DNA of 64,000 nucleotides from Bacillota bacterium (GCA_023435925.1 JAEZLF010000310.1:999-64998), one strand, 5' to 3'. Shown: positions 28,283 to 64,000, numbered from the stretch's first letter. Notes: generated by a model not told the origin, from the letters alone. A program made the numbers and translations.

Positions 28283-28477
28283 ATGAGTAAAAATAAAAAG
28301 CCAAACAGACTGATTAATGAAAAATCTCCATACTTACTCCAACACGCTCATAACCCCGTAGACTGGTACCCCTGGGGGCCGGATGCCTTTTCACGAGCTG
28401 TTTCCGAGGATAAACCCATATTCCTCTCCATCGGCTATTCCACTTGTCACTGGTGCCAGTTTCATCAAATACACTAA
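28283..28477 (+). pseudogene. host 5' portion of the DUF255/YyaL-type thioredoxin-domain gene, severed by prophage insertion (attL side)
   Basis: GAGAGG RBS. Translation [58 protein letters not shown] is followed by six phage-derived codons and a stop. Composition is host-like. Confidence 0.85.
28442..28458. repeat. attL core block ACTTGTCACTGGTGCCA (inferred crossover dinucleotide CA at 28457-28458)
   Basis: This is the last stretch shared with 62728-62744 and 27945-27961. The integrase stop codon lies only 16 bp to the right. Confidence 0.7.
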
Positions 28478-29988
28478 TTGTATTCAATTTCTATTTCTGC
28501 ATCTTCACTTACTCTAGTCCATGTTATAACCTTAATTAGTTTTTTATATATTGTATTCAAATTAATAACATTAATTATTTTTAATCTATTTAACATATCC
28601 TTATAATAAGTAATTCTATCCTCTGGATTTACGCTTTGTAAATTTAACATTTTTCTTTCCAGTATATCAATTTCTTTAGTAGTTGAATAAACTAAACTTT
28701 CCCATTTCTCTTTTCTTTGTAACCATTCGTCTCTTTTATAATCTCCCAATTCATAAGCTTCGTTGACCTTATCTAAAGCAGAAACGTATTTTTCATAATC
28801 TTTTTGCTTTTTGCTTATTTCTATTTTCAAGGTTTTGATATCATTGACATAATTCCCATCATCATTTTTCTCGAGCAATTCTATTGATTTTTTAATATGA
28901 ATCTCTGCTTTCTTTTTTACCGTTTCTAATACTTCTTTATAATTTCCCCCTCTATTCGCACACTTTTCCCCCACTTCGCTTATGTGCCAGCATGGTTTTA
29001 TAAGTATATAACCATTATTCTTTTTTTGAAATGTCATGCCATAACCACATATACCACATTTAATTAGTCCACTTAATTCATATGTTCCTGCTCTCGCCCT
29101 TTTAGGTGTTTTTTGTCGTTTATTAATTAACTCTATTATTATATCGTGTTCCAATTGTGTTTTAGTAGCTTCATGACAGTTATCAACGATATTCCATTCA
29201 CTTCTAGGTAGTTCTCTATATTCTTTAGCATTAGATTTCTTAATCTTATGCCCATCGCCCTTTGTTTTATTTGTGATAATTTTACCTAGGTGAGTTTCGT
29301 CTGTTAATAATCTATATATTGCTACATTTGACCAAGCTTTACCTTTAGAACTCAATATATTTTTCTTATTCAAATCAATTGATATATTTTGTGGAGTTAC
29401 ACCTTTTAAAGCTTGTTCAATAATATATCTGTAAATCTCTAATTTTTCATCATTTACAACTAAACCTTTTTCATTAAACTTACCATTCCACTCTTGATAT
29501 TCATAAGGGAATGGAGGAATCCCATTTGTCCAATTACCCATCTTTGCTCCGGCTTTTTTACCTTGTCTTAATCTTCGGGTTATGGTTTTATATTCGTGTC
29601 TTGCGAAGAAACTTTGAAAATCAGAATAATCTTCATCTGATTCATTATTTAAGTCATAAATTTTACTTGGAGTAATAATTAATGTGTTAGATTTTTTTAA
29701 TATATCTTCAATATAACCTTGCTCATTTTTGCTTCCTCTTGACAATCTATCATAATCCATTACAACTACCGCATCATATAACTCTGATTCAACTTCGCTT
29801 AGAAGTTTTTTAAATTGTGGTCTCATCTCAATACTGTCTGATGTTCCAATTTCTGCATATTCAACATATTTCCAATTATTTTTCTCGCATAATTCTACTA
29901 ATGCATTCCTATGCTTCTGGAGGTCTTTTTCTTCATCACCCCTTGACTTTCTTAAATATATCGCAACAAATCTAACATCATATGTCAT
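28474..29988 (-). CDS. large serine recombinase (phage integrase)
   Basis: The N-terminal resolvase domain ([16 protein letters not shown]) is followed by a recombinase domain, a zinc-ribbon (CGICGYGM...C) and a coiled-coil. The ATG at 29988 has an AAGGGG RBS; the track uses an upstream TTG at 30012. Confidence 0.9.
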
Positions 29989-30008
29989 AATTTTCAACCC
30001 CTTAATAG

Positions 30009-30140
30009 TCAATATTTGGCTATTTCGTTTCTATTATATTTAACAATGTCAATTTTGTCAAATACACTTCCAATTGCTTGTGCTGTTTTCTTAATTGCCT
30101 CATCAGATGGCTGATTTTTAATTATTACGTTTATTTTCAT
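30009..30140 (-). CDS. small 43-aa protein immediately upstream of the integrase (possible directionality factor; function unknown)
   Basis: GAGGGAG RBS directly upstream of the ATG (about 2-nt spacer). Translation: MKINVIIKNQPSDEAIKKTAQAIGSVFDKIDIVKYNRNEIAKY. The stop abuts the integrase start region. Confidence 0.35.
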   Translation of the reverse strand: MKINVIIKNQPSDEAIKKTAQAIGSVFDKIDIVKYNRNEIAKY

Positions 30141-30172
30141 ATCTCCCTCACATTCTTATCAATAAAAATTGC

Positions 30173-30208
30173 AAAAACAAAATAGGGACATACCATTTGG
30201 TACACCCC
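30173..30208 (-). terminator. rho-independent terminator after the holin gene (end of the late operon)
   Basis: Minus-strand hairpin GGGGUGUACCA..UGGUAUGUCCC (with G-U pairs) followed by UAUUUUGUUUUUG. Confidence 0.55.
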
Positions 30209-30235
30209 TCATTTATATATCTTGTATTTACTTTA

Positions 30236-30658
30236 TTACTCTACATCGTCTTTCTCTTCCATAATCTGATCTTTTGCTACCTTAAACCATTTCATAATAA
30301 CATTGGGCAATTTGATATCCATGCCTATTGAATTCTCAATAATTGAGGCCAATTCCTTGAAGCAGAATGCACCAATGAAAATAGTTCCCACTGGAACATT
30401 GATTCCATTTAGCATAGCAACCCTTTGACCAAGTATCAAAGCAAATAATAAGAAGAATTCTCCAACCTTTTTCAGCATTCCAACTTTCATTTCATGGCTG
30501 GAAAAGTTACCATTCTTAAAGCTTTTAATAACTCCTGTTATGATGTCTACACTCATGAGTATTACCCATATGATTATGATTTCCCAGTTTAAGCCAGCTA
30601 GGTAAGCACACAATCCTAGAAAAGAACCTAATATTATATCAATAAAACTATTTTTCAT
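30236..30658 (-). CDS. phage holin (holin_4 / toxin-secretion-lysis holin type)
   Basis: 140 aa with 3-4 TM helices and a charged C-terminal tail. The pattern WVILMSVDIITGVIKSF...GMLKKVGEFFLL is typical of this holin family. Confidence 0.7.
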   Translation of the reverse strand: MKNSFIDIILGSFLGLCAYLAGLNWEIIIIWVILMSVDIITGVIKSFKNGNFSSHEMKVGMLKKVGEFFLLFALILGQRVAMLNGINVPVGTIFIGAFCFKELASIIENSIGMDIKLPNVIMKWFKVAKDQIMEEKDDVE

Positions 30659-30693
30659 TTTAATCCTTCCTTATATCTTATAATTACTTTAAC

Positions 30694-32394
30694 TTAATAA
30701 TTACCTCCACCCCTACTTTGTACAAATATCTGCTTAGTTACTGTAGCAGCCATTCTTGCTAATCCTGAAGGGTTATTAGATGTCGTACTTGGATATATCT
30801 CTACCGTATGAAACGCTCCACGAGTAACTTTGCCGTTTGATTGAGACAAGTAAGGTATAATATCAATATCGCTACCGGAGAGGCTGGTTACCGGAATTGT
30901 AGTGCCATCTACTTTAATTATTACTGATGTTGGCAGATAATAAAACTCGTAGATACCATAGTTGATGTCATGTGTATGCGAAGGAATTGAAACTTCATGA
31001 TTATGCGCTGGTATATCAAGTTGCGGAGAGTATACCCAATGATAATGATTTCCGTTGTATGGTGTTGAAATTTCCGATGCAACTCCGAATGCAAATACAA
31101 GTGCTTCTGAAGATGATGAAGCTGTGCTACCTCCTCCAGATGCAGAACCTGTTTCATATGCCCTGAATTTATCCGTTTCAAATGTCAATAAGCATTTATT
31201 TACCGCCACACATTCATTGGGAATATAGAATTTAATAGTAGCAGGATGAGAATTATCGCAATTATCCTGATAATCATCACTATCAATACAAGTAGTCCCT
31301 TGGGCGTATACATCATTGATATGTTGCTTGCTCTGGATGCTGGTTGTAATATCTGCTATATCCAAAGCTTTATTGGATATCTCAATCTGTATATCTCCCG
31401 GATTGCCTGTTAAGTCAGATTTACTAACCCCCATAATTCTGGCAGTAAAATTGCCTATATCTACATCATAGACATCGACAAGTATACCCGGTTCCGTAAA
31501 TTTATCTAGGGTATCTCCTGAAATAGAATATATATCAGCTCCATCTATTGTATATGTAATTCTTGGATTTTTTACAGTCTCCAACCATGCTAATGCTTTA
31601 GCCTTTAATGTTGCAGCACTCTCTGTAGACTTGTCAATAAATGTTATTGCCTTAACTCCATATAAACTTAATGTATCTGCATCCAGATAAGGTACACCTA
31701 CATTTACATCTTTTATAGTTAGCTGGTTAATGCCCTCACCATATCCTAGTGGATATACCCTTGTTATAATATAGCTTGGATCTTCATCTTTTGTTATACC
31801 TACAAGATTTTTTTGATATATTATACGTGCTGTAGCTGTACTAGGAGGATTTATTAGATTTACTGTCCATGGATAACTTATAGTATCCCATGTCCACTGA
31901 TATGCTCCTGTATAGGCTTTGGGTAGACTAAATAATGCACTTAATAGATTTTCGTTTGACCATCCATAGTCAAATATGTTTACAAAGTCTACAGTACCTC
32001 TTACCCAATTTGTTGTTGTCTGCCTGCTTAAGATATAGTCAATATTGACAGATGGGACATAACCAACAGACTGATGATACTGGAACATGATATCATCCAG
32101 CAGAGTAGCTAGTACGTGCTCACATTGGTATGTTATAGTTTTACCATCAGCAGATTTTTGAAACTTACTCGGTACTATCCTAAAGAGTTCAACACGTTCT
32201 CCATTATCAAATATTTCGACATATCTAAAAGCTGTACATTCCGCATTTTTAGGATCATCTGCTGGTAAACTAAATTGTGCTGTCCATACTTCGTTAAATC
32301 TTTTTGTATATCCAATATCGTATGCATTTTGTAAAATAGCAACAGGGTTAGTGGTACTAACCCCGTAATCATAAATCTTTATCAAGTTTTTCAC
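30694..32394 (-). CDS. phage minor structural protein / tail-tip anti-receptor (Tal-like N-terminus, ReqiPepy6 gp37-like C-terminus)
   Basis: The N-terminus IYDYG....AILQNAYDIGYTKRFNEVWTAQFSL...VEIFDNGERVELFRI is typical of siphovirus anti-receptor N-terminal regions. The C-terminus is His-rich (HNHEVSIPSHTHD). The likely start is the TTG at 32385, 8 nt after an AGAGG RBS. Confidence 0.65.
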   Translation of the reverse strand: MKNLIKIYDYGVSTTNPVAILQNAYDIGYTKRFNEVWTAQFSLPADDPKNAECTAFRYVEIFDNGERVELFRIVPSKFQKSADGKTITYQCEHVLATLLDDIMFQYHQSVGYVPSVNIDYILSRQTTTNWVRGTVDFVNIFDYGWSNENLLSALFSLPKAYTGAYQWTWDTISYPWTVNLINPPSTATARIIYQKNLVGITKDEDPSYIITRVYPLGYGEGINQLTIKDVNVGVPYLDADTLSLYGVKAITFIDKSTESAATLKAKALAWLETVKNPRITYTIDGADIYSISGDTLDKFTEPGILVDVYDVDIGNFTARIMGVSKSDLTGNPGDIQIEISNKALDIADITTSIQSKQHINDVYAQGTTCIDSDDYQDNCDNSHPATIKFYIPNECVAVNKCLLTFETDKFRAYETGSASGGGSTASSSSEALVFAFGVASEISTPYNGNHYHWVYSPQLDIPAHNHEVSIPSHTHDINYGIYEFYYLPTSVIIKVDGTTIPVTSLSGSDIDIIPYLSQSNGKVTRGAFHTVEIYPSTTSNNPSGLARMAATVTKQIFVQSRGGGNY

Positions 32395-32402
32395 CTCTAA
32401 AA

Positions 32403-33395
32403 TTATATAACGTTCTTTTCATGTTCTTGCATCACAGTATCTACGTTCAGTTGCGCATATATCTGTGTTGTGACAGGGCTTTCGTGTCCTAAATATCTCT
32501 GAACCACTGCCAATGAAGCACCATTGTTAAGCATATTTGATGCTGTAGTATGTCTCATCAAGTGAGGGTAGACAGGCTTTGTAATACCCGCTTTTGCGCC
32601 AAGCTCCGAAAATGTTCTTTCGATAGCCCTCCTACCAAGTCTGGCATGAGGCTGCCTCTCGCTAACAAATAAAGCATCATCATTATCCGTCCTTGAGTTA
32701 AGGTATTTCCACAGTGATACTTTTGCTTTGGCATTGAGCCTTACTGGACGTTCTTTTCTGCCTTTGCCAAGAACAATAACCCTGCTGGTAGACCAATCTA
32801 TACTACTTTTGTTAAGAGGTTGAACTTCATCTAGGCGGCAACCTGTAGAATAAAAAAATTCCACCAACGCTCTATCCCTAAGATTTGTACTTGCTGCATC
32901 TCGTAACATCTCAAATTCTTCAGCTGTTAATGCCTTGCGCACATATTTATTTGTCTTAATGGCTTTTATTTTTCTTAATGGGCTTTTTAAGATATATTCT
33001 TCGTCCTCCAACCATGTAAAGAATGCTTTGAGTGCAGAAAGCATCGTTGACATTGTGCTGTTCTTTACTCCAGTCTTTGCGTACGATGTCATGTACATAC
33101 GAATATCCATTGTAGTGATGTTCTCAATATCTTTCTGTATAAAACGAGAGAAACGTGTCAGTTGAATCTTGTATGATTTCAGTGAATGCGGCGATAATCC
33201 ATCCAACCTTTTAGCGGCCAGATAAAGAAATATCTTTTCGTTAATGTTAGTAATAGGTACTAATGCTCTTGTGACCGGATGCAGTTCGTAATCGTACAGT
33301 TCTTCTTCCAAAATGATACGGAGCTTTGCTACTTGCTCACTGTTAAGAATGTCCCATGTCCTATCCAGAACCCTGATGATAAATTCCTCACGCAT
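32403..33395 (-). CDS. XerC/XerD-like tyrosine recombinase embedded in the tail module
   Basis: SAM-like N-domain plus a catalytic domain carrying R (STGCRLDE), HxxR (HLMRHT), LGH and the Tyr motif (TTQIYAQ). AGGAGG RBS. The stop lies 8 nt before the next gene. Confidence 0.85.
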   Translation of the reverse strand: MREEFIIRVLDRTWDILNSEQVAKLRIILEEELYDYELHPVTRALVPITNINEKIFLYLAAKRLDGLSPHSLKSYKIQLTRFSRFIQKDIENITTMDIRMYMTSYAKTGVKNSTMSTMLSALKAFFTWLEDEEYILKSPLRKIKAIKTNKYVRKALTAEEFEMLRDAASTNLRDRALVEFFYSTGCRLDEVQPLNKSSIDWSTSRVIVLGKGRKERPVRLNAKAKVSLWKYLNSRTDNDDALFVSERQPHARLGRRAIERTFSELGAKAGITKPVYPHLMRHTTASNMLNNGASLAVVQRYLGHESPVTTQIYAQLNVDTVMQEHEKNVI

Positions 33396-33402
33396 GATAA
33401 AT

Positions 33403-33470
33403 GCCTCCTATTGAATATCTAGGAGGCGTAATGTATAATTACATTGCAAACACATAGTACCCTCCTAGAT
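33403..33470 (-). promoter_or_regulatory. 5' leader of the recombinase gene with mutually exclusive SD / anti-SD / decoy-SD hairpins
   Basis: In the RNA, GCCUCCUAGAU (33427-33417) can pair with the true SD UAGGAGGC (33410-33403; 8 bp). It can alternatively pair with the upstream AUCUAGGAGG (33470-33461; 10 bp). The loop contains the palindrome GTAATGTA-TAAT-TACATTGC. Confidence 0.5.
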
Positions 33471-33553
33471 AGGGGCCTGTGTGAGGAAGCTTCTCGGTTG
33501 CCGCCGTGGAGCTTCCTTTGCTATATAAATATTTATAGCATGACCTTGCCTAT

Positions 33554-33582
33554 ATTATACCAAACATATGTTCGTGTATCAA
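33554..33582 (-). promoter_or_regulatory. sigma-A-type promoter for the recombinase gene
   Basis: Minus strand: TTGATA, 17-nt spacer, TATAAT. Confidence 0.55.
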
Positions 33583-33640
33583 GGATTACATGCTATTTCT
33601 TGAAAATTATTACTTCGCTTTCTACCCTTAGAAAATGAAT

Positions 33641-33664
33641 AAGGCCTCCGATTAAGGAGGTCTT
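33641..33664 (-). terminator. terminator after the MazF-like gene
   Basis: Minus strand GACCUCC-UUAAUC-GGAGGCC followed by UUAUUC. Nearly the same hairpin recurs at 50693-50720. Confidence 0.5.
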
Positions 33665-33746
33665 AAATCATATTTGCTCACCAAAGAGCTAATAATATTT
33701 AGTTATATGTGTCTTATTACTAAGACGAATAATATTTAATTATATT

Positions 33747-34322
33747 TTATGCTTCTTTCTTGATAATGTCAACATCTGAAAATAAAATTTTTGCAACGGA
33801 TAGTTCAATATCTTGTCTACTTGTAACTACATCATAATATCCTTTTGCTTGGTACAATCTTTGTAAATCTACACATCTTGCATTTCTAACTTGTAATTTG
33901 GTCAATCTGCCATTAATAAAATCTTTCACTTCAATTGAAAACTCCGAATCTTCTTCAACATCAATATTAGTATTATCATCTGAAGTTGAAGGAATTATTA
34001 AATATTTTGTCTTAAATTTTTTCAAGATATAGCACCAATGACCTCCAAACAATTCTTTTGGAAAACCATGCCCTAAATTAAAATATGCCATCTGATGGAT
34101 ATTTGGCTCTGTTTTTAATTTATAATATGTGTCATTTGGATTTTTATCTTTATTATTCTCAACATATTTTGTAAAAAATCTATCTAATTGTTCTATTTGC
34201 AATTTTAAATCATATAAAAATCCGTGCTTGTCATATTTTCTTCCATTCGTATTATCTTCAGGCATATTCTTTATATCATGAAAAATATGTGCTATTTCCC
34301 ACATTTCTTTATATATATTCAT
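33747..34322 (-). CDS. PemK/MazF-fold toxin-like protein with an N-terminal extension of about 85 aa (orphan, no adjacent antitoxin gene)
   Basis: The C-terminal half aligns by eye to MazF/EndoA blocks: AYFNLGHGFPKELFGGHWCYIL, YLIIPSTS, LQVRNARCVDLQRL. The ATG at 34322 has a GGAGG RBS, and the gene has its own promoter and flanking terminators. Confidence 0.5.
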   Translation of the reverse strand: MNIYKEMWEIAHIFHDIKNMPEDNTNGRKYDKHGFLYDLKLQIEQLDRFFTKYVENNKDKNPNDTYYKLKTEPNIHQMAYFNLGHGFPKELFGGHWCYILKKFKTKYLIIPSTSDDNTNIDVEEDSEFSIEVKDFINGRLTKLQVRNARCVDLQRLYQAKGYYDVVTSRQDIELSVAKILFSDVDIIKKEA

Positions 34323-34365
34323 ATAACTTCCTCCACACTCACAAATTTCTCTCACATTATACCAC

Positions 34366-34428
34366 TTATTGTATATATGTGAAAGATTTTGTAAGAAAGA
34401 TTAGAGGAATGAGGGGAGATGACTCCCC
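34366..34428 (-). promoter_or_regulatory. terminator of the tailspike gene (GGGGAG-UCAU-CUCCCC) followed by an extended -10 promoter (TGgTATAAT) for the MazF-like gene
   Basis: The hairpin is at 34413-34428 with a U-rich tail. The ATTATA (-10, minus strand) is at 34366-34371, preceded by TGG. Confidence 0.45.
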
Positions 34429-34453
34429 ATGAGTAGTGAACATAATGATCCTA

Positions 34454-35182
34454 CTATGCATTAGGTATTCTCAACACTCTATATCCTGCACCACCCGAAT
34501 CGTTCGTACCGATCGACACGTTAAGTCCTCCATATTTTAATCCCGCTACTGCAACCACGCCAGTTCCTGTTGCTCGTGTGAATCTCAAATCTCCTGTAGC
34601 TGTTTCGACGTTTACGTTCCATTTACTGAGAGCATCACCAGCTAATAACCCTATGTGCGAGTTAGAACCACATATCATCATGGGTTCGGTTGTTAGTGCG
34701 GCTAAAGCCAGATTGATAGCGTTATCGGTAGTACCTATACACATTTTTTTAAAATGTTCATTGTTGTGGTATCCATAACTAGTTGACCAATGCACCGTAG
34801 CACCAGTTTCGATTACAGGGTCTTTTGTGGCATTTCCCTTATCAATCTGTAAAATTGTCGTGTTCCGTGAAGGGTAAGTGTAGCTCTCTGTACCCCTTGC
34901 AACAATTGACAACGCATTAGTTTTCCATGAAATTCCCACATGCACAAAATAATTATCAGCCGCACCCGATACATTGGTATCATTACGACCTCGCAATTCA
35001 ATGCCTATACCTGTACTATCATTTGACAATACATGAACTCTCGTCTGAATAAATACGTTATTATCTGCATTATCAAGTACTAGTCCTATACCGTTATGTA
35101 TCGCACCCTGTATACCTTCAAAGTAGTTATAAGAAGTATTACCCCATTTTCCAGCTACGGATTGACCACCAGATAAAAACAA
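34454..35182 (-). CDS. C-terminal part of a beta-helix tailspike-like protein (same frame as 35219..36007, separated by one TAA)
   Basis: Gly/Asn/Thr-rich beta-helix-like repeats. There is no RBS and only a TTG start, and the frame is open back to the TAA at 35219-35221. Confidence 0.6.
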   Translation of the reverse strand: MFLSGGQSVAGKWGNTSYNYFEGIQGAIHNGIGLVLDNADNNVFIQTRVHVLSNDSTGIGIELRGRNDTNVSGAADNYFVHVGISWKTNALSIVARGTESYTYPSRNTTILQIDKGNATKDPVIETGATVHWSTSYGYHNNEHFKKMCIGTTDNAINLALAALTTEPMMICGSNSHIGLLAGDALSKWNVNVETATGDLRFTRATGTGVVAVAGLKYGGLNVSIGTNDSGGAGYRVLRIPNA

Positions 35183-35218
35183 GCCTGCACCGTTTTTAAC
35201 ACGCTGTTTGAATGTAAT

Positions 35219-36007
35219 TTATCTAAATGTATTTTTCTGTGAATCACATGCTTCTGCTATTGCTCCGGCTGTATCAACACCCACGAATAATCCAGATGTT
35301 TCAAATTCGTCAAAGTATAAAGATTCAAAACGAGAATTATTAACACTTTTTATAACTAATCCATACCCTGCAAGACTATTAGCAATAAAAGATATATTAG
35401 ATACTTCGCATGAGTCAATGCGAGTTAATGATGTTATATGAGGACATAATTCCATCATCGTACCACTTGCAGCACCGATCCAAGTAAAACGTGTGGCTGC
35501 TATATTACCGGAAGCATCATGTATATCGCCCATACCAAATCCAATAAGATGAATGTTTGAACCATCAATAACTATCTTGTTTCCTATGCCATAATTAGCA
35601 GGAGGAAAAATAATATATGCACCATTTACCGACTTTGCATATTGAATCATAGCATTAATAGCCGTTGAATCGTCTGTGCCATCACCTTTACATGCCACAA
35701 GTGGAGCAGGTGGAGCAAAAACATTAATATATATCTTTGCAGTTTCTGCCTTATGCGACAAAGCATCAGTCTCCATATCCTCAAGCCGATCGGTTAAAAC
35801 GGTATAATTTTTATCTTTTACTATGCTATGCCTAGCATCAACAATCTCTGTGTTACTGGCTCCTGCTCCTGCAATTATATTATCAACACGATCCTCCAAG
35901 GCATTATGACCTGTCATAGTATCATTAAAATTATCTTTAACAATTGTCCACCAGTCACGAAGCTTTGTAAGTCCTGTAAATGCTGTATTTAAATTTAATT
36001 TACTCAT
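35219..36007 (-). CDS. N-terminal part of a pectate-lyase-superfamily tailspike/depolymerase-like protein
   Basis: GDGTDDSTAINAMIQYAKSVNGAYIIFPPANYGIG is typical of the Pectate_lyase_3 N-terminus. The ATG at 36007 has a GAGGAGG RBS. The ORF ends at a TAA that is in frame with the following ORF. Confidence 0.65.
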   Translation of the reverse strand: MSKLNLNTAFTGLTKLRDWWTIVKDNFNDTMTGHNALEDRVDNIIAGAGASNTEIVDARHSIVKDKNYTVLTDRLEDMETDALSHKAETAKIYINVFAPPAPLVACKGDGTDDSTAINAMIQYAKSVNGAYIIFPPANYGIGNKIVIDGSNIHLIGFGMGDIHDASGNIAATRFTWIGAASGTMMELCPHITSLTRIDSCEVSNISFIANSLAGYGLVIKSVNNSRFESLYFDEFETSGLFVGVDTAGAIAEACDSQKNTFR

Positions 36008-36017
36008 TATTGCCTCC

Positions 36018-36848
36018 TCACAAATATTGTGGTCTAAAATCAAAAAGCACTGTGCAATTTAAGCCAGTGCCTGTAATACTTACTGTGTTATTTCCGGGTA
36101 CAAGTTTCAAAAATCGTATTAAATCTCCTGTGCAATTAAATAATGCATTATTGCCATTAGCCTTAATAGTTGCATCTACATTGTTAATAATAACTGTTTT
36201 CTCCGATACAGCAGTATTATAATTGATTGTTCTACCATTAATTGTAATACTCAAGGTTGAAAAGCTACCAGTTATAACTATGTCAAATTTACTACCATCT
36301 GGAGAACCTAAACCAACATCTTGAGTGCCTATATAGTTAATGTTAGCACTGGTATTGCTTGTTACAACCATAGTATAAGGATCTGTTGGATTAAGGGTAA
36401 TGTCACTATCTAATAATAAATCATTATCTATAATCACTTCTTCTCCAGATGACACTTGATAAAGAGCAAATGGTAAACATTCAAATTCAATTGTACATAC
36501 ACCCAACTTTGCAAATGTCCCTAGTTCAACGGCATCATAAATTCTTGCAAGATAGTATTTATCCGGTTCGTCATTAAAAGTAAGTGGTTCATAGGTGGTT
36601 CCGCTTAACCATGCTGCGATATCCCTTGCTTGTAACCTCATATTATTTTCATCCGTCCCTACAAACTGGAATAGGACAGATATGAATCTATTTTCATATT
36701 CATTTTCGTCAAAATCATAGCTGCCATGTTTACCCGGTATTCTCAATTGCTTTTTTGTGAGAGTTGGTATCATAGGACGATTAATAGATTTTGCAATAAT
36801 ATCAAAATCTTTAAAGCTGTGTTTACCTTTATATGTTATCTCTGTCAT
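36018..36848 (-). CDS. distal tail protein (Dit; siphovirus tail family protein)
   Basis: It sits directly after the tape measure gene. The N-terminus ITYKGKHSFKDFDIIAKSINRPMIPTLTKKQLRIPGKHGSYDF is typical of the Sipho_tail family. Confidence 0.75.
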   Translation of the reverse strand: MTEITYKGKHSFKDFDIIAKSINRPMIPTLTKKQLRIPGKHGSYDFDENEYENRFISVLFQFVGTDENNMRLQARDIAAWLSGTTYEPLTFNDEPDKYYLARIYDAVELGTFAKLGVCTIEFECLPFALYQVSSGEEVIIDNDLLLDSDITLNPTDPYTMVVTSNTSANINYIGTQDVGLGSPDGSKFDIVITGSFSTLSITINGRTINYNTAVSEKTVIINNVDATIKANGNNALFNCTGDLIRFLKLVPGNNTVSITGTGLNCTVLFDFRPQYL

Positions 36849-39136: not shown

Positions 39137-39704
39137 TGATATACCTCCCTTCCAAATTTCTCTCTTAATCTCTCTCGATCTGGTTTTGTCTGCTCTAATA
39201 TCCAACATCGTTCAAGATATTCTTGTCCTTCTTGAGTTTGCATGCATTTATAAATTACTGCATCCCTTAATAGTGCCTGATATTCAAATGCATCAAGATT
39301 CTCGATCTGAGCAAAATTAAAGCCGGTATATTCTGATACCAGCTTCTCTTCAAGGTAATTTAATTGATAATGTCCCTCATCGTCTTCTTCAGGGGCGTGA
39401 GGGACTTTTAGTTTGGGCTGTTCTTTACCTCATTTAACCATTTAAAATATTCAGTCAGTATTGTAAGATACTGATCCATATCAAGTTCGTCTATTACTTC
39501 ATCAGGCACTTTATATCCTGTTTTATTCTTTGATAAAATCATTTTTACTGCTTCGGATAATTCATCAATTGCATTGTTATTATGATTTTTTGATAAATCT
39601 ACTATTTTTCTTAAAACTTTTATTTTTGGTGGCTCTACTTCAAGTTCTACATCGTTTATTTTTATGTTGAAATATCGTCTATTTATAGTGCTTATGTCAA
39701 GCAT
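39121..39704 (-). CDS. tail assembly chaperone G and its -1 frameshift extension GT
   Basis: The G product is 39408..39704. The -1 frame is open from a UGA just upstream of the slip site to a stop at 39121, giving KEQPKLKVPHAPEEDD...TQEGQEYLERCWILEQTKPDRERLREKFG. Confidence 0.65.
39411..39417 (-). promoter_or_regulatory. programmed -1 ribosomal frameshift heptamer C_CCA_AAC
   Basis: A canonical X_XXY_YYZ motif lies immediately before the G stop codon. It sits inside the only window where the shift can occur. Confidence 0.6.
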
Positions 39705-39718
39705 AGTTATCTCTCCTC

Positions 39719-39745
39719 AAATAATAAAAGGGGCATTGCTGCCCC
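39719..39745 (-). terminator. terminator/attenuator after the major tail protein gene
   Basis: GGGGCA-GCAA-UGCCCC followed by UUUUAUUAUUU on the minus strand. Confidence 0.6.
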
Positions 39746-39751
39746 AGTATA

Positions 39752-40294: not shown

Positions 40295-40310
40295 TTTATC
40301 TACCTCTTTT

Positions 40311-40649
40311 CTACAATTTTTCTACAAATTTTATTTGGTATATCACCTGATATAGATCCTCAGATTCTATAAATGTCTCTGAAGTCTCATAATCGGCGTC
40401 TATATTCTCTAATACCGCTTCCAATGTTTGTTCAGCGGTTAAATCCTTCTTGCCTGTATAAAGCTCTATCTGATAATTTTTATATTTTCCATGAACCTTT
40501 TTATCGGAGGAAATATTATTATCAAATGACCGTAAATAAACAATATAAGGTGGTACAGGTAGAGGATTTTTTTCATCCACCTTGAAATGATGATATGCTA
40601 CTGGATAACCAGTAGTTTTTAATTGTGTAAATAACTCAGCTTGTGTCAT
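40311..40649 (-). CDS. tail terminator / tail completion protein (by position)
   Basis: 112 aa, located between the gp10-like and major tail genes. Confidence 0.45.
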   Translation of the reverse strand: MTQAELFTQLKTTGYPVAYHHFKVDEKNPLPVPPYIVYLRSFDNNISSDKKVHGKYKNYQIELYTGKKDLTAEQTLEAVLENIDADYETSETFIESEDLYQVIYQIKFVEKL

Positions 40650-52932: not shown

Positions 52933-55758
52933 TTATGATGCTTTTCTTTTTCTATCTCTTTCTTTAATCTTTTCTTCGGCACAGTTAGGGCACATCTTTT
53001 GTCGATTGCTTTTCTTCTCGAATTTTTCATTGCAACAGGTACAAACACTGAGTTTATCAATTCTTCTGACAACACCTGTGAGATCTGATTTAATATTATC
53101 ACAAAGATTATCATACACATATCCACCAAGTATATCAAACAGAAAGCTTTTTCCTGATTCCGATTTCTCCGTAAATACATATTTTATAATATTGTCTACA
53201 GCAAAATGTATATTAATATCCAGACTTATTATATCTTTGACAAAATCTATTAATAGGCTCTGGTTAGTAAGTCTTGCAACTTCTCTTTCATCCAATTCCT
53301 CAAAATTATTAGCATTATTGTATATATACGCTTGCTGCTGTAATCCCACATACTTTTGATAAATTTCAATGACTCTATTATCTATTTCAATTCTGGAATC
53401 GTTCATCATCTTACGGTAGTTAAATCGAGGAATATTTTCAAAATTAAAATTAGTATGGGGAATATCTTCAATTATTTGTGCAATCCTATCAACCGTACCT
53501 TCTCCTACACCAATATCTAAGCATTTGCTACTATCATAATCCTTTGCAAACTTAAAGAAGTAAGGCATTTCCCTATCACTTTTTAGAAATTGTCTCATTC
53601 TCTTATTGATTGTGACAAAATCTAATGACTTGGCACTATCTATCGAAAAGTTATTTAGTGCAGTCAATATTTTTGCTTTCTTTAGCAATACTTTCTTTTC
53701 ATCATCATTTGCCCCAGGATACATATTCCAGATTTGTGTCATTTTATTGGAATACTTTCCTACATTGCCTACCTTATAAGCGTAAGTCAAACTGTCATAT
53801 ATATGCTCATTATTAACTATCTGACAACCTGCAACACCCATTTCATAATACAACGGATTAATTCCTTCCATATTTCTTTTTGCTATTTTTATCAAGTCAT
53901 TTTGGTTTACAATAAGCAATTGATCCCCGTCACAGTCATACATAAGTACTTTACTAGCCAAATCATGAATGTTTACATATATAGCATTAGTGAGGAACCA
54001 ATCTTTATGCTCATTTCGCTTTCTATTGTTTGTTATCCAATGTTCTTTATATAGACTGGGTGACCTATTCAGCAATATTTCTTTTTGCGGAAACATTCTG
54101 CAATGTACTTCTTTTTCTTTCAATAAACCTTTTGGATTCTTATCACCTTTAAATATGTATTCACAGTAACTATACAGATCAGGTATAACAAAGGCATATG
54201 CAGCATCAATTTTTATCTTTCCTGCTTTAGCTGATTTTTTAATACTGGTTAGTTTATCTTCTATCCTATTTTTTACCCAAATATCACGTATAATTGATGG
54301 ATACTTATTAACACAGATAGCCAGATTAGATTGTTCATCATAGCCAAGTACTTTAAGCATAGCGTCAATCTTAGTATGTGCATTTATTATTAGCTCTACT
54401 GTTGGCTGAGTCAGTACCTTCAATTCTTCATCTGTAATATCTGTCAATGTCTGGAGCATCTGATAATTGTAAGTTGCTTTTTTATAGTAATATTTATCCT
54501 TATTCCTATTGGTCTTAATATCTTCCTCAATGTTACATTTACTTGCTTCACATCCATGTTCCTTGAACAATTGTTTATACATATCCCAACCAGAAAGTGT
54601 AGTCCCATTTTCGGCATTATATTTTTCCGCTAATGTCTTATAATACTTCCACATCTTAAACTGACTTTTACTGAAGATTATCTGAATATTTTCCTCAAAA
54701 ATATCGTGCTCAATGTTATATATATCTGTAACTTTATAATTGCCATTATTTTCACTTTGGCACCATCTTTTAATGTCCCATACTGCAAGCAGACCTTTCA
54801 TCCAAGGAAGTCTAATCATAAAGTTTTTGTCGGATAATTCTGGACTTATCATTCCAGCACCATCAATATGATTTATGGTTATATCCTTATCTACATCAGG
54901 AGTAACTTCCAAATTCCTACTGATGTAATCTACTTTACCAGTAACTATAGTTTCGAAATCATCACATACAATACATCTATCAATGCAAAAACCATCCCAT
55001 ACATCAGTAGCAGATAATTGTAATGCCAAATAACTAAGCATTTTATTAATATTGCAGCCTTGATATTCAGATTCATTCATATCTTGTATATCTAATCCGC
55101 ACTGTACTTTGTCTTTATGCTGATTCCAAAGAGACTCTTTGATAAAAAGTATCTTGTGTTTGCGAATTTGACCAGCACTAGCAGTCAAAGTAATATATTT
55201 CTCTTCTCTCCATCTGAAGCCATTATCAATAATAGACTTCATAATATTATTTTCATGCTCTGATACTATCCTAATCACAATAATATCATCGGTTATTTTG
55301 TTTTCTCCCAAGTCTAATATTCTACTAAGAGAACCTTCAAACACTGATATAGTATGATATTCAGATAATTCTTTGGTGATCTTCCTATTATTATTTTTGT
55401 TTCTATTTAATAATTCCGCTAAATATTTTTCAGCCTTTGTAATTTTATTATTAATCTCATTGTAAAAGACATTCTCTTTCAATGCATTTTTATAATCTGT
55501 TGATTGTCTCAAATATTTATGCTTCTTTACAAATTGATTGAACGACTTCTTTTTATGATACTTTAAATCTCTTACTTCCTGCCAATTTTTATACTTTAGT
55601 TTTTCAGTATCTTTATTGACAATTTGATATAATGTGAAATTCATAATAGCATACTTAATTGTATTAAGATTACTGATTGCTTTATTAATTTTATTTTCTT
55701 TTTTTGTGAAGAATACTCTAGTATCCACACTGTACATCTTAAATTGTCTATTCATCAT
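52933..55758 (-). CDS. YonO / RdRP-like two-barrel single-subunit RNA polymerase candidate with C-terminal zinc ribbon
   Basis: IRLPWMKGLLAVWD is like the first double-psi beta-barrel (R.P..KG.L). LLNRSPSLYKEH ... VLMYDCDGDQLLIV matches the R.P.L...H ... DxDGD catalytic loop of cellular RdRPs, YonO and the beta-prime NADFDGD motif. The C-terminus is CTCC...CPNC. Confidence 0.7.
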   Translation of the reverse strand: MMNRQFKMYSVDTRVFFTKKENKINKAISNLNTIKYAIMNFTLYQIVNKDTEKLKYKNWQEVRDLKYHKKKSFNQFVKKHKYLRQSTDYKNALKENVFYNEINNKITKAEKYLAELLNRNKNNNRKITKELSEYHTISVFEGSLSRILDLGENKITDDIIVIRIVSEHENNIMKSIIDNGFRWREEKYITLTASAGQIRKHKILFIKESLWNQHKDKVQCGLDIQDMNESEYQGCNINKMLSYLALQLSATDVWDGFCIDRCIVCDDFETIVTGKVDYISRNLEVTPDVDKDITINHIDGAGMISPELSDKNFMIRLPWMKGLLAVWDIKRWCQSENNGNYKVTDIYNIEHDIFEENIQIIFSKSQFKMWKYYKTLAEKYNAENGTTLSGWDMYKQLFKEHGCEASKCNIEEDIKTNRNKDKYYYKKATYNYQMLQTLTDITDEELKVLTQPTVELIINAHTKIDAMLKVLGYDEQSNLAICVNKYPSIIRDIWVKNRIEDKLTSIKKSAKAGKIKIDAAYAFVIPDLYSYCEYIFKGDKNPKGLLKEKEVHCRMFPQKEILLNRSPSLYKEHWITNNRKRNEHKDWFLTNAIYVNIHDLASKVLMYDCDGDQLLIVNQNDLIKIAKRNMEGINPLYYEMGVAGCQIVNNEHIYDSLTYAYKVGNVGKYSNKMTQIWNMYPGANDDEKKVLLKKAKILTALNNFSIDSAKSLDFVTINKRMRQFLKSDREMPYFFKFAKDYDSSKCLDIGVGEGTVDRIAQIIEDIPHTNFNFENIPRFNYRKMMNDSRIEIDNRVIEIYQKYVGLQQQAYIYNNANNFEELDEREVARLTNQSLLIDFVKDIISLDINIHFAVDNIIKYVFTEKSESGKSFLFDILGGYVYDNLCDNIKSDLTGVVRRIDKLSVCTCCNEKFEKKSNRQKMCPNCAEEKIKERDRKRKAS

Positions 55759-57466: not shown

Positions 57467-57622
57467 TGTACCAATCTGGTACAGATAAACTACATCGTCT
57501 GTAACCATTTGGTACAGATAAACCATTTTGTGTGTTTCTTTTGGTTACAGATAAATGCTTCGATGTGTAACCAATTGGTACAGTAAAATTATTTATGTGT
57601 CCCTATTTGGTACAGACAAAAT
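57467..57622. repeat. five-unit iteron array: TGT(A)ACCA-N3-TGGTACAGATAAA, period about 33 bp (candidate origin or operator array)
   Basis: GGTACAG cores start at 57478, 57511, 57543, 57577 and 57609. Unit 1 contains the perfect palindrome TGTACCA-ATC-TGGTACA. Confidence 0.7.
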
Positions 57623-57940
57623 ATTCTGTTCTCGTTATGTATTCACTTTTCAAGGTGCAATAAATCAGGCCAGCTCCTACAGACATAATTTCACACATCT
57701 GTAGTAGTTGGATTTTCGATATCTGGACATGCGGAAACAAACCTCATGTTAAATATCAAATATTTTGTTTTTTTGAATGCATTGGAATTGCAAAACTTAC
57801 AGGCGGGATTTTATTTTTTTGTAACCGTACAGTATAAAATAATATCTCTCTTGTAATTAATTAATTTCTACATTCAGTGCCTTGGTATGACTACGTTTGC
57901 GCTATTTTTCTGAGACTATAAAATAATGTTAAATTATTTG

Positions 57941-60444: not shown

Positions 60445-60535
60445 ATTATACTACGCAAATCGTAATTAGTCAATACGATTATCGTAATTTTTATTTTATT
60501 TTCGTATTGACTCGTTACGCAAATCGTATTATAAT
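60445..60535. promoter_or_regulatory. genetic-switch region: mirrored back-to-back promoters with three TACG-N5-CGTA operators
   Basis: Leftward promoter: TTGACT (60473-60468), 17 nt, TATAAT (60450-60445). Rightward promoter: TTGACT (60507-60512), 17 nt, TATAAT (60530-60535). Operators: TACGCAAATCGTA at 60452-60464 and 60516-60528, and TACGATTATCGTA at 60474-60486. Confidence 0.65.
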
Positions 60536-60560: not shown

Positions 60561-60782
60561 TTGCCAGTAAAATTTAAACTAAAAATGCTTCTTGCCATTA
60601 ATGAAATGACACAAAAGGAATTGGCTGAAAAAACAGGTATAAGGCCACCAACTATTTCAGCAATATGCAATAATTCAATTAAGCAAATACCCGTATCAGT
60701 AATAGAAAAGATATGTAAATGTCTAAATTGTAAGCCTGTAGATTGGATTGACTACATAGACGAAAATCAAGAAAACACCTGA
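60561..60782 (+). CDS. XRE/Cro-CI-type HTH regulator (73 aa), the only clear plus-strand regulator in the prophage
   Basis: MTQKELAEKTGIRPPTISAICNN is an HTH. TTG start 8 nt after a GAGAGGTG RBS. Confidence 0.75.
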   Translation: MPVKFKLKMLLAINEMTQKELAEKTGIRPPTISAICNNSIKQIPVSVIEKICKCLNCKPVDWIDYIDENQENT

Positions 60783-61992: not shown

Positions 61993-62046
61993 TATATACC
62001 CCCTGAAATGCATATTAGCAAAATCTACCTTCATTTTGTAAAGATA

Positions 62047-62286
62047 TTATTTCTTCAGTTCTTGCATACAATTTGGGCAAATGTTTTTACCTTTGTATAC
62101 GGAAATATCCTTTGCATCTCCGCAAAATATACAAGCCGGCTCGTATTTCTTTAAAATAATAGTTGATTGGTCAACATAAATCTCAAGAGAGTCCTTCTCC
62201 GAAATATCCAAAGTCCTTCTGAGTTCGATCGGGAGAACAACTCTTCCCAGTTCATCAACTTTTCTAACAATTCCTGTAGCTTTCAT
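62047..62286 (-). CDS. AbrB/SpoVT-type DNA-binding protein fused to a C-terminal zinc ribbon
   Basis: MKATGIVRKVDELGRVVLPIELRRTLDI is an AbrB swapped-hairpin domain. The C-terminus is CIFCG...CPNC. GTGAGG RBS. Confidence 0.75.
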   Translation of the reverse strand: MKATGIVRKVDELGRVVLPIELRRTLDISEKDSLEIYVDQSTIILKKYEPACIFCGDAKDISVYKGKNICPNCMQELKK

Positions 62287-62330
62287 ATTATACCTCACAT
62301 TTTATTTTATTTTTGTAACTTATGTAAGAT

Positions 62331-62359
62331 ATTGTAATATAATAGTAAATTATTGTCAA
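62331..62359 (-). promoter_or_regulatory. strong sigma-A-type promoter for the AbrB-like gene at the prophage right end
   Basis: Minus strand: TTGACA, 17-nt spacer, TACAAT. Confidence 0.6.
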
Positions 62360-62532
62360 TAGTGGGTGAAAAAAAATAAAAAGTACTTTTGTAGAATACA
62401 TTTTTGTTTAATAATAAAAGATGAGCATACAAATCTATATATAACTGCTTCACAGTTGAGTTTTCAAATTTAAATATAAAAGATAATTAATTGGGGTAAA
62501 TTAATAATAGCTTATCATGAAAGGACGCTACT

Positions 62533-62709
62533 ATGAAAGAATTTATTGATAATAAATACAAAAATGCAAACCGTTTAATTAACGAAAAATCACCTTACCT
62601 ATTACAACATGCTTACAATCCAGTAGATTGGTATCCTTGGAGTGATGAGGCTTTTCAGAAAGCTGCAAGAGAAAGCAAGCCTGTATTCTTGTCCATAGGC
62701 TATTCATAG
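62533..62709 (+). pseudogene. phage-borne, AT-rich homologue of the target gene's 5' end (copy C), ending at an in-frame TAG
   Basis: [59 protein letters not shown] 21-nt insertion (TAGTTGCGGCGTATTATATTT, 62707-62727) sits relative to copies A and B, and the frame then continues TCHWCHV. Confidence 0.75.
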
Positions 62710-62727
62710 TTGCGGCGTATTATATTT

Positions 62728-62744
62728 ACATGCCATTGGTGTCA
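62728..62744. repeat. attR core block ACATGCCATTGGTGTCA (inferred crossover CA at 62743-62744)
   Basis: It matches 28442-28458 and 27945-27961. Composition changes from phage-like to host-like at this point. Confidence 0.7.
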
Positions 62745-64000
62745 CGTCATGGAGCAGGAAAGCTTTGAGGATGCTGAAGTTGCTCAGCTACTGAATAAAA
62801 ACTTTGTAGCAATAAAGGTGGACCGGGAAGAACGTCCGGACATTGACAGCATCTATATGTCGGTATGCCAGGCTCTCACCGGCCATGGCGGATGGCCAAT
62901 GACCATCATTATGACTCCGGACAAAAAACCTTTTTTCGCAGGCACATACTTTCCAAAGCATGATCGGATGGGACTACCGGGTATTATGACCATTCTTGAA
63001 AGAGCGTCACTCTCCTGGAGGGAAAACAAGGAAGCTGTTTTGGAAACCGGCAATCACATTGTCAACGCTATATCGGCACCTGTGAAAGAGGAAGGCGACA
63101 TAGATTATTCCGAGCTCGTTCAGAAAGCCTTCAGTCAGTATAAATCCGCTTTTGACAGTATGCACGGTGGCTTTGGAAATGCCCCCAAATTCCCCACTCC
63201 CCACACATTATTTTTTCTTTTACGTTACTGGAAGCTTACAGGTGACGATTCAGCACTCAAAATGACGGAGAAAACCCTTGATTCCATGAGGCGCGGCGGG
63301 ATATTCGACCATATCGGATATGGTTTTTGCCGATACTCCACTGACCGAATCTGGCTGGTGCCGCATTTCGAGAAGATGCTCTATGACAATGCCTTGCTCG
63401 CCATAGCTTATCTGGAAACGTACCAGGCAACCGGAAACGGTCAATATGCAAAGACCGCAGAAGAAATATTTACCTATATCCTCCGAGATATGACGTCACC
63501 GGAGGGTGCTTTCTATTCTGCCGAGGATGCAGATTCAGAAGCTGAGGACGGAAAGAACGAAGAGGGGTTTTTTTATACATGGACACCCGATGAGATCACA
63601 CAGGTTCTTGGCGTAACCGATGCTCAGCGTTTTATGCTGCTTTTTAACATTACATCAAAGGGTAATTTTGAAGGACGCAGCATTCTCAATACTATAAAGG
63701 GCAATATACCAGGCAGTGACCTTGAATTTGTAGAAGCCTGCCGGCAAAAGCTCTTTGAGAACCGCGAGAAGAGGCCGCACCCATTCAAGGATGACAAGGT
63801 GCTGACCTCCTGGAACGGATTGATGATTGCAGCTTTGGCAATAGGCGGTAGAGTTCTTGGAAAAGACCAATACACCTTGGCAGCAGAAAAAGCAGCCAAA
63901 TTTATTCTTTCCAATCTGATTGACAAAGATGGCCGCCTGCTTGCCGTATACCGCGACAGTGCTTCCCCTGTCAAAGGTTACGCCGATGATTATACCTTCA
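62745..64000 (+). CDS. remainder of the DUF255/YyaL-type thioredoxin-domain protein (six-hairpin/epimerase-like C-domain); the 3' end runs off the window
   Basis: Open frame to the window end: HVMEQESFEDAEVAQLLNKNFVAIKVDREERPDIDSIYM...GGWPMT...HGGFGNAPKFPTPH...DRIWLVPHFEKMLYDNALL. The ORF track lacks it because there is no in-window start or stop pair. Confidence 0.85.

Follow-up and report, generated by a model that had tools for sequence, protein, structure and literature searches.

Several genes of Bacillus and Clostridia are interrupted by elements that encode large serine recombinases, namely, spsM by SPbeta (recombinase SprA, directionality factor SprB) and sigK by skin (SpoIVCA) in Bacillus, and sigK and yabG by elements of Clostridia (PMC4191935, PMC5499854). 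Here we analyse a stretch of 64,000 nt from a Bacillota bacterium related to Clostridium (GCA_023435925.1, JAEZLF010000310.1:999-64998; hereafter, the window), in which a prophage splits a conserved thioredoxin-like gene of the DUF255/YyaL family within its C-H-W-C codons. The layout resembles that of SPbeta and skin, as a sequence-only reading of this DNA had pointed out: a large serine recombinase element interrupts a coding gene of a spore former, its precise excision would rebuild the open reading frame (ORF) and, as with SPbeta, the element is a complete phage. However, the targets of SPbeta and skin are sporulation genes and their excision is driven by sporulation sigma factors, whereas DUF255 has no known role in sporulation, and their integrases are only ~29-32% identical to the one in the window. 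Moreover, what had been taken for a plain gene split has a further component, as the phage carries a translatable copy of the displaced N-terminus that appears to be under selection, hereafter the surrogate; we know of no selected surrogate of the displaced gene end in SPbeta or skin elements.

Integrative elements that target tRNA genes and coding sequences may restore them by means of a target-gene fragment carried at attP, the phage attachment site (Mageeney et al., 2020, PMC7192596). The window phage is like these elements in that the displaced part of the target gene is copied next to attP and is conserved at the protein level. It differs in that they use a tyrosine integrase and their copy, usually of the 3' end, fuses seamlessly into one intact gene, whereas here a serine integrase is used and the cassette replaces the 5' end, has its own translation start and always ends in a stop codon and a non-coding attP arm, so that a two-piece protein is the best that could result. 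Phage 21 and e14, which reside in icd, are further gene-restoring examples. Serine-integrase prophages are also found inside comK (Listeria A118 and phi10403S) and groEL1 (mycobacteriophage Bxb1), a condition referred to as 'active lysogeny'. With these the window phage shares a short attachment (att) site within a coding sequence, and an integration that alters host gene function and is reversed by excision; target and integrase clade are different, and to our knowledge no phage-borne surrogate fragment has been described for any of the three.

The prophage is a temperate siphovirus and apparently complete, with genes for terminase, portal, protease, capsid, tape measure, Dit, tail and holin. 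Its G+C (GC) content of 0.33 sets it apart from the left (0.43) and right (0.47) flanks, which are host-like in composition, as had been claimed. Both junctions read as first given, namely, GGC TAT TCC ACT TGT CAC TGG TGC CAG TTT CAT on the left (28431-28465) and TTT ACA TGC CAT TGG TGT CAC GTC ATG GAG CAG on the right (62725-62757); the attL core, TGTCACTGGTGC, occupies positions 28445-28456 and the attR core positions 62731-62742. Joining 28283-28458 to 62745 onward in silico yields one open frame that starts with MSKNKK and whose right part matches Pfam Thioredox_DsbH/DUF255 (E=1e-50). The comparison with a prophage-free relative that the sequence-only reading had proposed could be made with a sister strain (ENA ERZ27269264 k141_111825, locus L246), found because its 680-aa protein (P0241) clusters at 90% identity with the truncated gene product. 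This strain has no prophage and an intact DUF255 gene of 680 aa, between flanks that are 95.7-96.3% identical to those of the window, with LigD, a tocopherol-cyclase-like gene, DUF6976 and splB on one side (95.7% nucleotide identity) and the DUF255 body on the other (96.3%). Its junction, GGCTACTCCACTTGTCAT-TG-GTGTCATGTCATGGAGCAA, is collinear with left plus right flank without any indel. Given the open in-silico join and this intact collinear allele, precise excision of the prophage would rebuild a single DUF255 ORF. A search with one genome per species (GTDB) for an uninterrupted allele gave a closest match of only 62% identity. The lysogen itself was met again in nearly identical form in another assembly (L248, ERZ27268868), and a Logan contig (L081, run SRR13358386) has the same sequence as the window. 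A real, well-delimited prophage insertion by a serine integrase is in itself a known kind of event. Integration cuts the resident promoter and codons 1-56 off from the remainder of the gene, and the following features, with positions counted along the window, define the interrupted locus.

28453-62736, nearly all genes on the minus strand: prophage, 34,286 bp from TG to TG, GC 0.33, recognised by composition and by Pfam and PHROG annotation; the whole stretch is missing from L246.
28283-28477, plus strand: attL ORF of 64 aa (MSKNKK...), made of resident fragment B (codons 1-58, including STCHWC) and then six codons of the phage P' arm.
28445-28461, plus strand: attL core, TGTCAC-TG-GTGCCAGTT, with the proposed central TG at 28451-28452.
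28474-29988, minus strand: large serine recombinase (integrase), 504 aa from ATG, recognised by Pfam domains; its 3' end converges on the att core.
62533-62709, plus strand: surrogate N-terminal ORF (C) of 58 aa, with Shine-Dalgarno sequence aaagga, start ATG and stop TAG; GC 0.335, phage-like; DUF255 N-terminus.
62707-62730, plus strand: stop codon plus 21-nt outer P arm (TAG TTGCGGCGTATTATATTT ACA), placed by alignment of the three gene copies and dyad analysis; an insertion between the host Ser and Thr codons.
62731-62747, plus strand: attR core, TGCCAT-TG-GTGTCACGT, with the proposed central TG at 62737-62738.
62710-64000, plus strand: DUF255 body, readable from the TTG right after the TAG as MRRIIFTCHWCHVMEQ...; the full ORF, of 633 aa, extends beyond the window.

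The body ORF is 100% identical to a public gene call (P0121/P0242), matches Pfam Thioredox_DsbH and is 96.3% identical to its counterpart in L246.

A fragment of the target gene adjoins attP not only in the window phage but also at 25 further unique sites (26 in total). All 26 copies span 51-59 codons and end in ...GYS followed by an immediate stop, which may be any of the three stop codons. Translation signals, namely, an in-frame start and a Shine-Dalgarno-like sequence (in many cases AAAGGAGGTG), are present in 25 of them. Between stop and core lies a spacer of 18-27 nt, or of 46-53 nt in three lineages; counted as P-arm DNA, it measures 15-50 nt. This spacer is the outer P arm, which pairs in inverted orientation with the P' arm, as in L088 (TTGCTTATTTTTAC with GTAAATAAAAGCAA), L104 (TGGTTCTATT with AATAGAACCA) and L247 (GGTGTATTATATTTAC with GTAAAATACACC); the last of these, which is the closest phage (74% identity), has TAG CGGTGTATTATATTTACC at the matching place and forms a dyad with its own P' arm. 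Serine integrases distinguish attP from attB by the arms of the sites, and since the integrase must be able to do so, the N-terminal copy cannot continue seamlessly into the core. In-frame fusion of the fragment into one intact gene was seen in none of the 26 cases, all of which have the stop after GYS, and the spacers fall into all three frames (9, 6 and 11 of 26). Hence, surrogate and body must be separate polypeptides, which excludes their fusion by read-through. Together, fragment and attP make up a cassette that most clade members carry and whose orientation with respect to the integrase varies: in L083 and L247 the integrase is followed by the fragment and then by attP, while in the window the integrase converges on fragment and attP. 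Where the spacer is long (46-53 nt; L121, L128/L129 and L130), a hairpin with a TTCG or TGCG tetraloop encloses the stop codon, and L121 has, in addition, a start-stop mini-ORF just before the core, in which TAG comes immediately after an ATG with a perfect Shine-Dalgarno sequence.

The surrogates were then compared codon by codon with genuine N-termini. First, none of the 24 usable copies has a break within the 46 conserved codons, and the median pairwise ratio of nonsynonymous to synonymous substitution rates (dN/dS) is 0.07, versus 0.145 for the same codons in 62 intact host genes. Second, the close phages L093, L095, L096, L092 and L094, whose copies stand beside very different host bodies, differ from each other by 9-11 synonymous and only 1-3 nonsynonymous codon changes. 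Third, the nearest relatives of phage copies are other phage copies and not host genes, and per-site entropy correlates between surrogates and host N-termini (r=0.79, p=1e-10). In an AlphaFold model of an intact homolog (predicted template modelling score, pTM, 0.79), residues 46-51 (PIFLSI) form a beta-strand and CxxC stands at the start of a helix (56-66). This modelled layout, a strand and then a CxxC helix, is the standard arrangement of the thioredoxin fold, and in the model the surrogate ends just after the core strand, one turn before the active site. These patterns argue that the surrogate peptide is made and is constrained to fit the remainder of the domain.

The integrase is indeed a large serine recombinase, with resolvase (PF00239, E=2.6e-21, residues 16-161), recombinase (PF07508, E=2.6e-12) and zinc-ribbon (Zn_ribbon_recom, PF13408, E=1.4e-7) domains all present, and the motif YxRKSR of its catalytic region (Y19, R21, K22, S23, R24) is invariant across 25 homologs. 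As is characteristic of serine integrases, the att sites are short, have an imperfect dyad about a non-palindromic TG, and attP and attB are identical only within a small core. The integrase has 557 homologs. Use of the core was counted in those loci with a complete integrase and enough 3' flank, by asking for a CHWC core at most 700 nt away from the integrase. Such a core was found in 17 of 24 loci whose integrase is at least 45% identical to that of the window, in 21 of 23 at 40-45%, in 4 of 7 at 35-40%, in 1 of 12 at 30-35% and in none of 13 below 30%; pooled, 38 of 47 loci with at least 40% identity have it, versus 1 of 25 below 35%, and some of the seeming exceptions have variant cores. 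The target of this integrase clade, in many genomes and metagenomes, is a 17-bp near-palindromic core, TGYCAY-TG-GTGYCAYGT, which codes for C-H-W-C-H-V. Junctions of the attL type, with host N-terminus, core and P' arm, were found in the window, L098, L141 and L144; junctions of the attR type in L083, L087, L092-096, L113, L121, L127-129, L137, L139, L143, L148 and L192; and free attP in L088, L100, L102-108, L123, L130, L140, L186 and L247. The protein database holds, in addition, many truncated DUF255 products of 620-633 aa, which mark further lysogens.

No integrase more than 32% identical was found among deposited phage genomes, the nearest being those of SPbeta-like staphylococcal phages, Clostridium perfringens PhiS63 and Clostridium tetani phages, and among the deposited phages sought as cultured relatives the N-terminal fragment occurs on only one unannotated faecal contig. 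Full-text literature searches returned no paper tying DUF255/YyaL to prophages or att sites. The clade and its target appear to be undescribed so far, and what is new here is the target, namely, the codons of the DUF255 CHWCH active site, together with the integrase clade, the att cassette, whose surrogate stops in every case one codon short of Thr-Cys-His-Trp-Cys, and the recombination fossils at the locus. Two loci of the clade are arranged differently. L082 (Ga0395530_009208) has an integrase 70% identical to that of the window, no DUF255 core on its 4.9-kb contig and unrelated downstream DNA, which could reflect a change of specificity or a rearranged contig. In L113 (Ga0134104_1000339, 1534-6805) two DUF255 bodies lie in opposite orientations on either side of one integrase, one with N-terminal fragment, stop and spacer, and the other adjoining the 3' end of the integrase; either an inversion between att sites or the interruption of two paralogs could account for this.

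The sequence common to attL and attR is TGGTG, one mismatch (C/T) and CA, so that exchange is possible anywhere within TGGTG or at the CA, where the crossover had originally been placed. We scanned 160 loci around integrase relatives for the CHWC-coding motif and took as attP-like those cores with phage DNA on both flanks, which gave 18 unique sites. In 17 of the 18, including the reconstructed attP of the window phage, the best dyad centre is the TG at the start of the Trp codon (TGG), and 12-19 of the 24 positions that flank it are complementary; the coding core, ACN-TGY-CAY-TG-GTG-YCA-YGT, is itself near-palindromic about this TG, and attP and attB have in common the core TGYCAYTGGTGYCAYGT. 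A crossover at TG also predicts a TGT second Cys codon at the L246 empty site and on the host side of attR, and TGT is what both have, which supports TG. Judged by symmetry, the central dinucleotide is most likely the TG at 28451-52 / 62737-38, 6 nt to the left of the CA, and the predicted sites are ACTTGTCAC-TG-GTGTCACGTCATGG for attB and ACATGCCAT-TG-GTGCCAGTTTCATC for attP. The restored protein is identical for either crossover. An exact-match search of IMG/VR for the predicted attP of the window phage, bearing on TG versus CA, gave no match. The stop codon of the integrase does lie close to the crossover, as had been noted; the distance, first given as 16 bp, is 15 nt from the CA and 21 nt from the TG.

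The sequence-only reading had also missed two further N-terminal copies of the gene, the phage-borne ORF at 62533-62709 and a relic at 27826-27965, which starts 90 nt after splB. The relic and its surroundings comprise the following features.

27826-27965, plus strand: relic N-terminal fragment A, 5'-truncated and without start codon, which reads seamlessly through STCHWCHV, with the core TGTCATTGGTGCCATGT at 27948-27964.
27965-27990, plus strand: relic P'-type arm, catgtccgcatataacagcaatt, which resembles the P' arms of L140 (catgtccgcaaaagtagcaatt) and L141/L144 (caagtttgtaattaacagcaatt).
28041-28049, plus strand: isolated core-like fragment, CACTGGTGC, in the 195-nt filler between relic A and segment U, with no homolog in the fetched loci.
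28161-28210, plus strand: segment U, upstream of fragment B, 94% identical to L246 5528-5578.

The blastn alignment to the attL of L141/L144 extends through the relic arm, and fragment A with its core and arm (27826-27990) makes up a fossil attL, left by an earlier phage of this clade. Relic A and fragment B (28325-28458) form a 134-nt direct repeat with 80% identity and a spacing of 497 nt, and relic A is 90% identical to the N-terminus of the intact L246 gene. This identity is unevenly distributed: A agrees with L246 at 72 of 75 positions to the left of GTTTCCGA and at 46 of 57 to its right, and B shows the reverse pattern, with 57 of 75 and 54 of 57. Both switches are significant in Fisher tests (p=0.008 for A and p=0.004 for B), and both breakpoints fall in the same 8-nt interval. 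By this alignment the L246 N-terminus is composed of A in its 5' part and B in its 3' part, the footprint of one reciprocal homologous crossover between N-terminal copies. L246 has a relic of its own (5528-5631), in which U is fused to the decayed 3' end of an N-terminal fragment upstream of the intact gene. Two histories fit these data: either a circle with U, a foreign N-terminal fragment, core and P' arm, that is, an attL-type molecule like a specialised transducer, inserted into the gene, or L246 arose from a window-like tandem through an A x B deletion. A single history for A, B and the L246 relic was set aside, as both of these reciprocal scenarios stand. No traces of an integrase gene were found in the filler at 27966-28282. 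Further afield, a Thermacetogeniaceae metagenome-assembled genome (L006) has at 1577-1740 a relic of the promoter region and N-terminal codons (to SIG), 1.1 kb upstream of an intact DUF255 gene, which is similar to the relics of the window and L246.

As read from the alignments, these fossils show repeated use of the site and recombination of N-terminal copies with the host gene, and such recombination is a plausible origin of the phage-borne cassette. Here the parallel is with specialised transducing phages (lambda gal/bio), as the relic at 27826-27990 is an attL-type junction that entered or left by homologous crossover, like phage DNA with a captured host 5' region. The difference is that in lambda gal/bio capture is a rare and defective by-product, whereas in this clade the captured piece is a fixed and apparently selected part of the att cassette.

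We propose the following account of the locus. The integrase would insert the phage at the TG of the Trp codon, leaving on the attL side the 64-aa ORF. The surrogate, which contains the central beta-strand of the thioredoxin fold, would be a working protein piece and would probably associate with the body, such that the lysogen has a two-piece enzyme instead of none. The body would restart at the TTG next to the stop in the window, and elsewhere either at a start codon in the spacer (~40% of junctions) or at a Met after CxxC, giving a CxxC-less form. The cassette probably arose through capture of host 5' DNA and may still be able to recombine homologously with the host gene, which would explain both the relic attL and the reciprocal chimeric N-termini. 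As an overall explanation, namely, a serine-integrase siphovirus in the DUF255 core, an att cassette and a working surrogate that pairs with the body, we hold this account to be probable, if not by a wide measure. That the surrogate acts together with the body fragment is, taken on its own, a possibility to which we would give somewhat less than even weight. More tentative still is the broadest formulation, in which a widespread and undescribed phage clade would turn a one-chain thioredoxin-fold enzyme into a two-chain or precisely CxxC-less form, by means of a selected half-domain that ends one residue before the active site and an attP arm that forbids seamless fusion, and in which, through recombination of the cassettes with host genes, phages would swap horizontally the promoter and initial ~55 codons of a universally conserved gene, with att fossils as the remains.

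The restart of the body bears on this account in both directions. In the window the TTG abuts the TAG, and public annotations call back-to-back ORFs of 58 and 633 aa; explicit restarts with Shine-Dalgarno sequence and ATG are seen in L087 (TGAGGATATAAATG), L113 and L128. Several observations, nevertheless, weigh against a working two-piece enzyme. A canonical start in the frame of the body lies upstream of CxxC in ~11 of the 26 junctions and in 14 there is none, so that a CxxC-containing two-piece enzyme is not the general outcome; elsewhere the only start available to the body would be the Met or Val that follows CHWCH, so that CxxC is left out. One copy, L102, has an early in-frame stop; the gut phages L107-L120, L123, L140, L148 and L192 have no surrogate; and no clear sigma-70-type promoter above background was found upstream of 62533-62709 in the window. 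As several clade members lack it, the surrogate must be accessory, and integration does not require it. Finally, gene conversion or recurrent capture from hosts might, in principle, leave the same signature as purifying selection, but L093, L095 and L096 speak against this, as their surrogates are near-identical although the host bodies next to them are very different. The idea that a restart codon for a body with CxxC is conserved was discarded, such a codon being seen in only those ~11 junctions.

Of the other explanations, the one that survives best, although we consider it unlikely, is that the N-terminal copy has no protein function and is captured host DNA (by aberrant excision of the specialised-transduction type), a homology arm or neutral baggage, with lysogeny inactivating the gene. 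N-terminal copies do cross over homologously with the host gene, as the reciprocal chimeras and the 497-bp repeat unit indicate; the junction of relic A is of the attL type and seamless, as captured host DNA should be; and both the clade members without the fragment and the junctions without a start for a CxxC-containing body, which are more than half, would be expected. However, a homology arm would tolerate frameshifts and need no translation signals, whereas start, Shine-Dalgarno sequence and open frame are kept in 25 of 26 copies and the immediate stop in all of them. The low dN/dS and the excess of synonymous changes between close phages likewise speak for a translated product, and with 70-80% identity over ~170 bp the copies make a poor RecA substrate.

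A developmentally regulated element like skin or SPbeta, whose target gene is silent while the lysogen grows vegetatively and is restored in the mother cell by an excision specific to sporulation, is the sense in which the layout had first been read, if only as speculation; it is not borne out here and seems to us improbable. The presence of splB marks the host as a spore former, the integrase is distantly related (28-32% identity) to SPbeta-type integrases and the PhiS63 integrase, excision would restore the ORF, and the phage encodes an AbrB-fold regulator at its right end. Against this, the full-text searches found no link of DUF255/YyaL with sporulation, one paper terming the protein's role 'unclear', and members of the family are widespread in archaea and in many phyla that do not sporulate. 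The adjacency of splB, which had been offered as a pointer, does not hold up: in L246 genes of the AraC type and the GNAT family separate splB from DUF255, and the window has, at 27735-27827, 93 nt of unrelated sequence in place of these 2.5 kb (L246 3551-6043), so that the adjacency is due to a 2.5-kb loss in the window strain. With no conserved synteny in 80 host loci either, a functional link to splB was rejected. In addition, the phage looks fully lytic-competent, its clade relatives are ordinary free phage contigs, including some from human gut samples, and a pure off-switch needs neither a selected surrogate nor a restart codon.

To a slightly lesser extent still would we credit the surrogate as an autonomous phage effector, that is, a dominant-negative mimic of DUF255 or of its partner, or an integrase cofactor or directionality factor, with the host enzyme not restored. 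Its conservation equals that of genuine N-termini and would fit any role that involves docking as the real N-terminus does, its position is always next to attP and often immediately downstream of the integrase, and small directionality factors come in sizes that include its 51-59 aa. Yet a different conserved small ORF, usually directly upstream of the integrase, is the more conventional directionality candidate, and a mimic without CxxC and the remainder of the fold would probably be unfolded on its own. Lastly, it is scarcely credible that ribosomes read through or hop over stop and spacer, in the manner of T4 gene 60, into a full-length fused protein: a stop within a UUCG/UGCG-tetraloop hairpin directly after Ser in the three long-spacer lineages (TGACCC-TTCG-GGGTCA in L128/L129, TAGC-TTCG-GCTA in L130, and L121), and, in L128 and L130, the Ser codon that immediately precedes ACN-TGY (gaps, 42-47 nt), would suit it, but the three spacer frames rule out read-through, the window and most members have neither hairpin nor matching landing codon (in the window TTT precedes ACA), and Ser before Thr in some P arms is more simply leftover host homology. 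Bypass of the gene-60 kind was accordingly dropped, as hairpin or Ser landing codon occur in only two or three long-spacer lineages and the window has a TCA take-off codon, no Ser landing codon, no hairpin and a gap of 21 nt (versus ~50).

The remaining annotated features of the prophage are as follows.

30009-30140, minus strand: 43-aa ORF (MKINVIIKNQPSDEAIKK...) directly upstream of the integrase, with the motif IKVxxKNxPSxxAI.
30236-47114, minus strand: late genes, by Pfam and PHROG, among them a tail terminator and a protease.
30236-30658, minus strand: holin.
30694-32394, minus strand: tail endopeptidase-like protein.
32403-33395, minus strand: tyrosine recombinase with Phage_integrase and SAM-like domains, among the tail genes.
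36018-36848, minus strand: Dit.
36845-39208, minus strand: tape measure protein.
42335-43537, minus strand: major capsid protein.
44151-45350, minus strand: portal protein.
45369-47114, minus strand: large terminase.
60561-60782, plus strand: XRE-type helix-turn-helix protein of 73 aa, from ORF translation; Pfam HTH_3 on the identical gene in L248.
62047-62298, minus strand: AbrB/MazE-fold protein of 83 aa (PHROG 4681, E=7e-35), at the right prophage end and divergent from the surrogate ORF.

Excision by large serine recombinases calls for a separate directionality factor. Small ORFs similar to the 43-aa one adjoin the integrase in 29 related loci, mostly directly upstream of it, and we would guess that it is a candidate recombination directionality factor. 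The tyrosine recombinase (32403-33395) has its own promoter-like sequence (TTGATA-17-TATAAT), and upstream of it lies a hairpin-containing element of 29 nt (33634-33662), with a second copy at 50689-50717 (93% identity); around this gene no convincing inverted repeats of an invertible tail-fibre segment were found. A phage protein of 941 aa (52933-55758, minus strand) matches the eukaryotic-type RNA-dependent RNA polymerase family (Pfam PF05183, E=3.5e-10, 39.7 bits with a cutoff of 23.8) as well as PHROG 8308, whose function is not known; presumably it may be a single-subunit RNA polymerase like YonO, a kind known from SPbeta. A gap of 1.1 kb without coding sequence separates early genes and contains, at 57467-57629, four direct repeats of ~32 nt (TGTAACCATTTGGTACAGATAAAC...), which probably serve as iterons at the origin of phage replication. 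Just upstream of the XRE-type gene, whose 73-aa product is the probable phage repressor, there is a 34-nt inverted repeat (60445-60535). The AbrB-fold gene has a strong sigma-70-like promoter (TTGACA-17-TACAAT, 62359-62331, 11 of 12 positions); in a spore former, transition-state or sporulation genes could come under the influence of such an AbrB-like regulator encoded by a phage. On the host side, a 10.9-kb block of higher GC (0.44-0.49) at 13310-24235 of the window, with a HAD-family phosphatase and a LacI-solute-binding fusion, is not in L246, where LigD directly adjoins the tocopherol-cyclase-like gene; it is either a genomic island in the window strain or a deletion in L246.

Natural serine integrases with known sites are sought as tools for genome engineering, and the integrases described here add a new and well-populated clade with a computationally mapped attB/attP pair. 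Their target family is present in bacteria and archaea, and we take SPATA20 to be its eukaryotic homolog. The relic att sites and reciprocal chimeras suggest that phages can drive the evolution of the 5' end of a host gene. Whereas elements with tyrosine integrases usually restore their target seamlessly, this clade reaches a different compromise with its host, in which the need to keep attP unlike attB seems to force a stop and a spacer, and the phage nevertheless retains the translated surrogate. Should the two pieces assemble, the clade would offer a natural example of protein splitting imposed by a phage within the well-studied thioredoxin fold.

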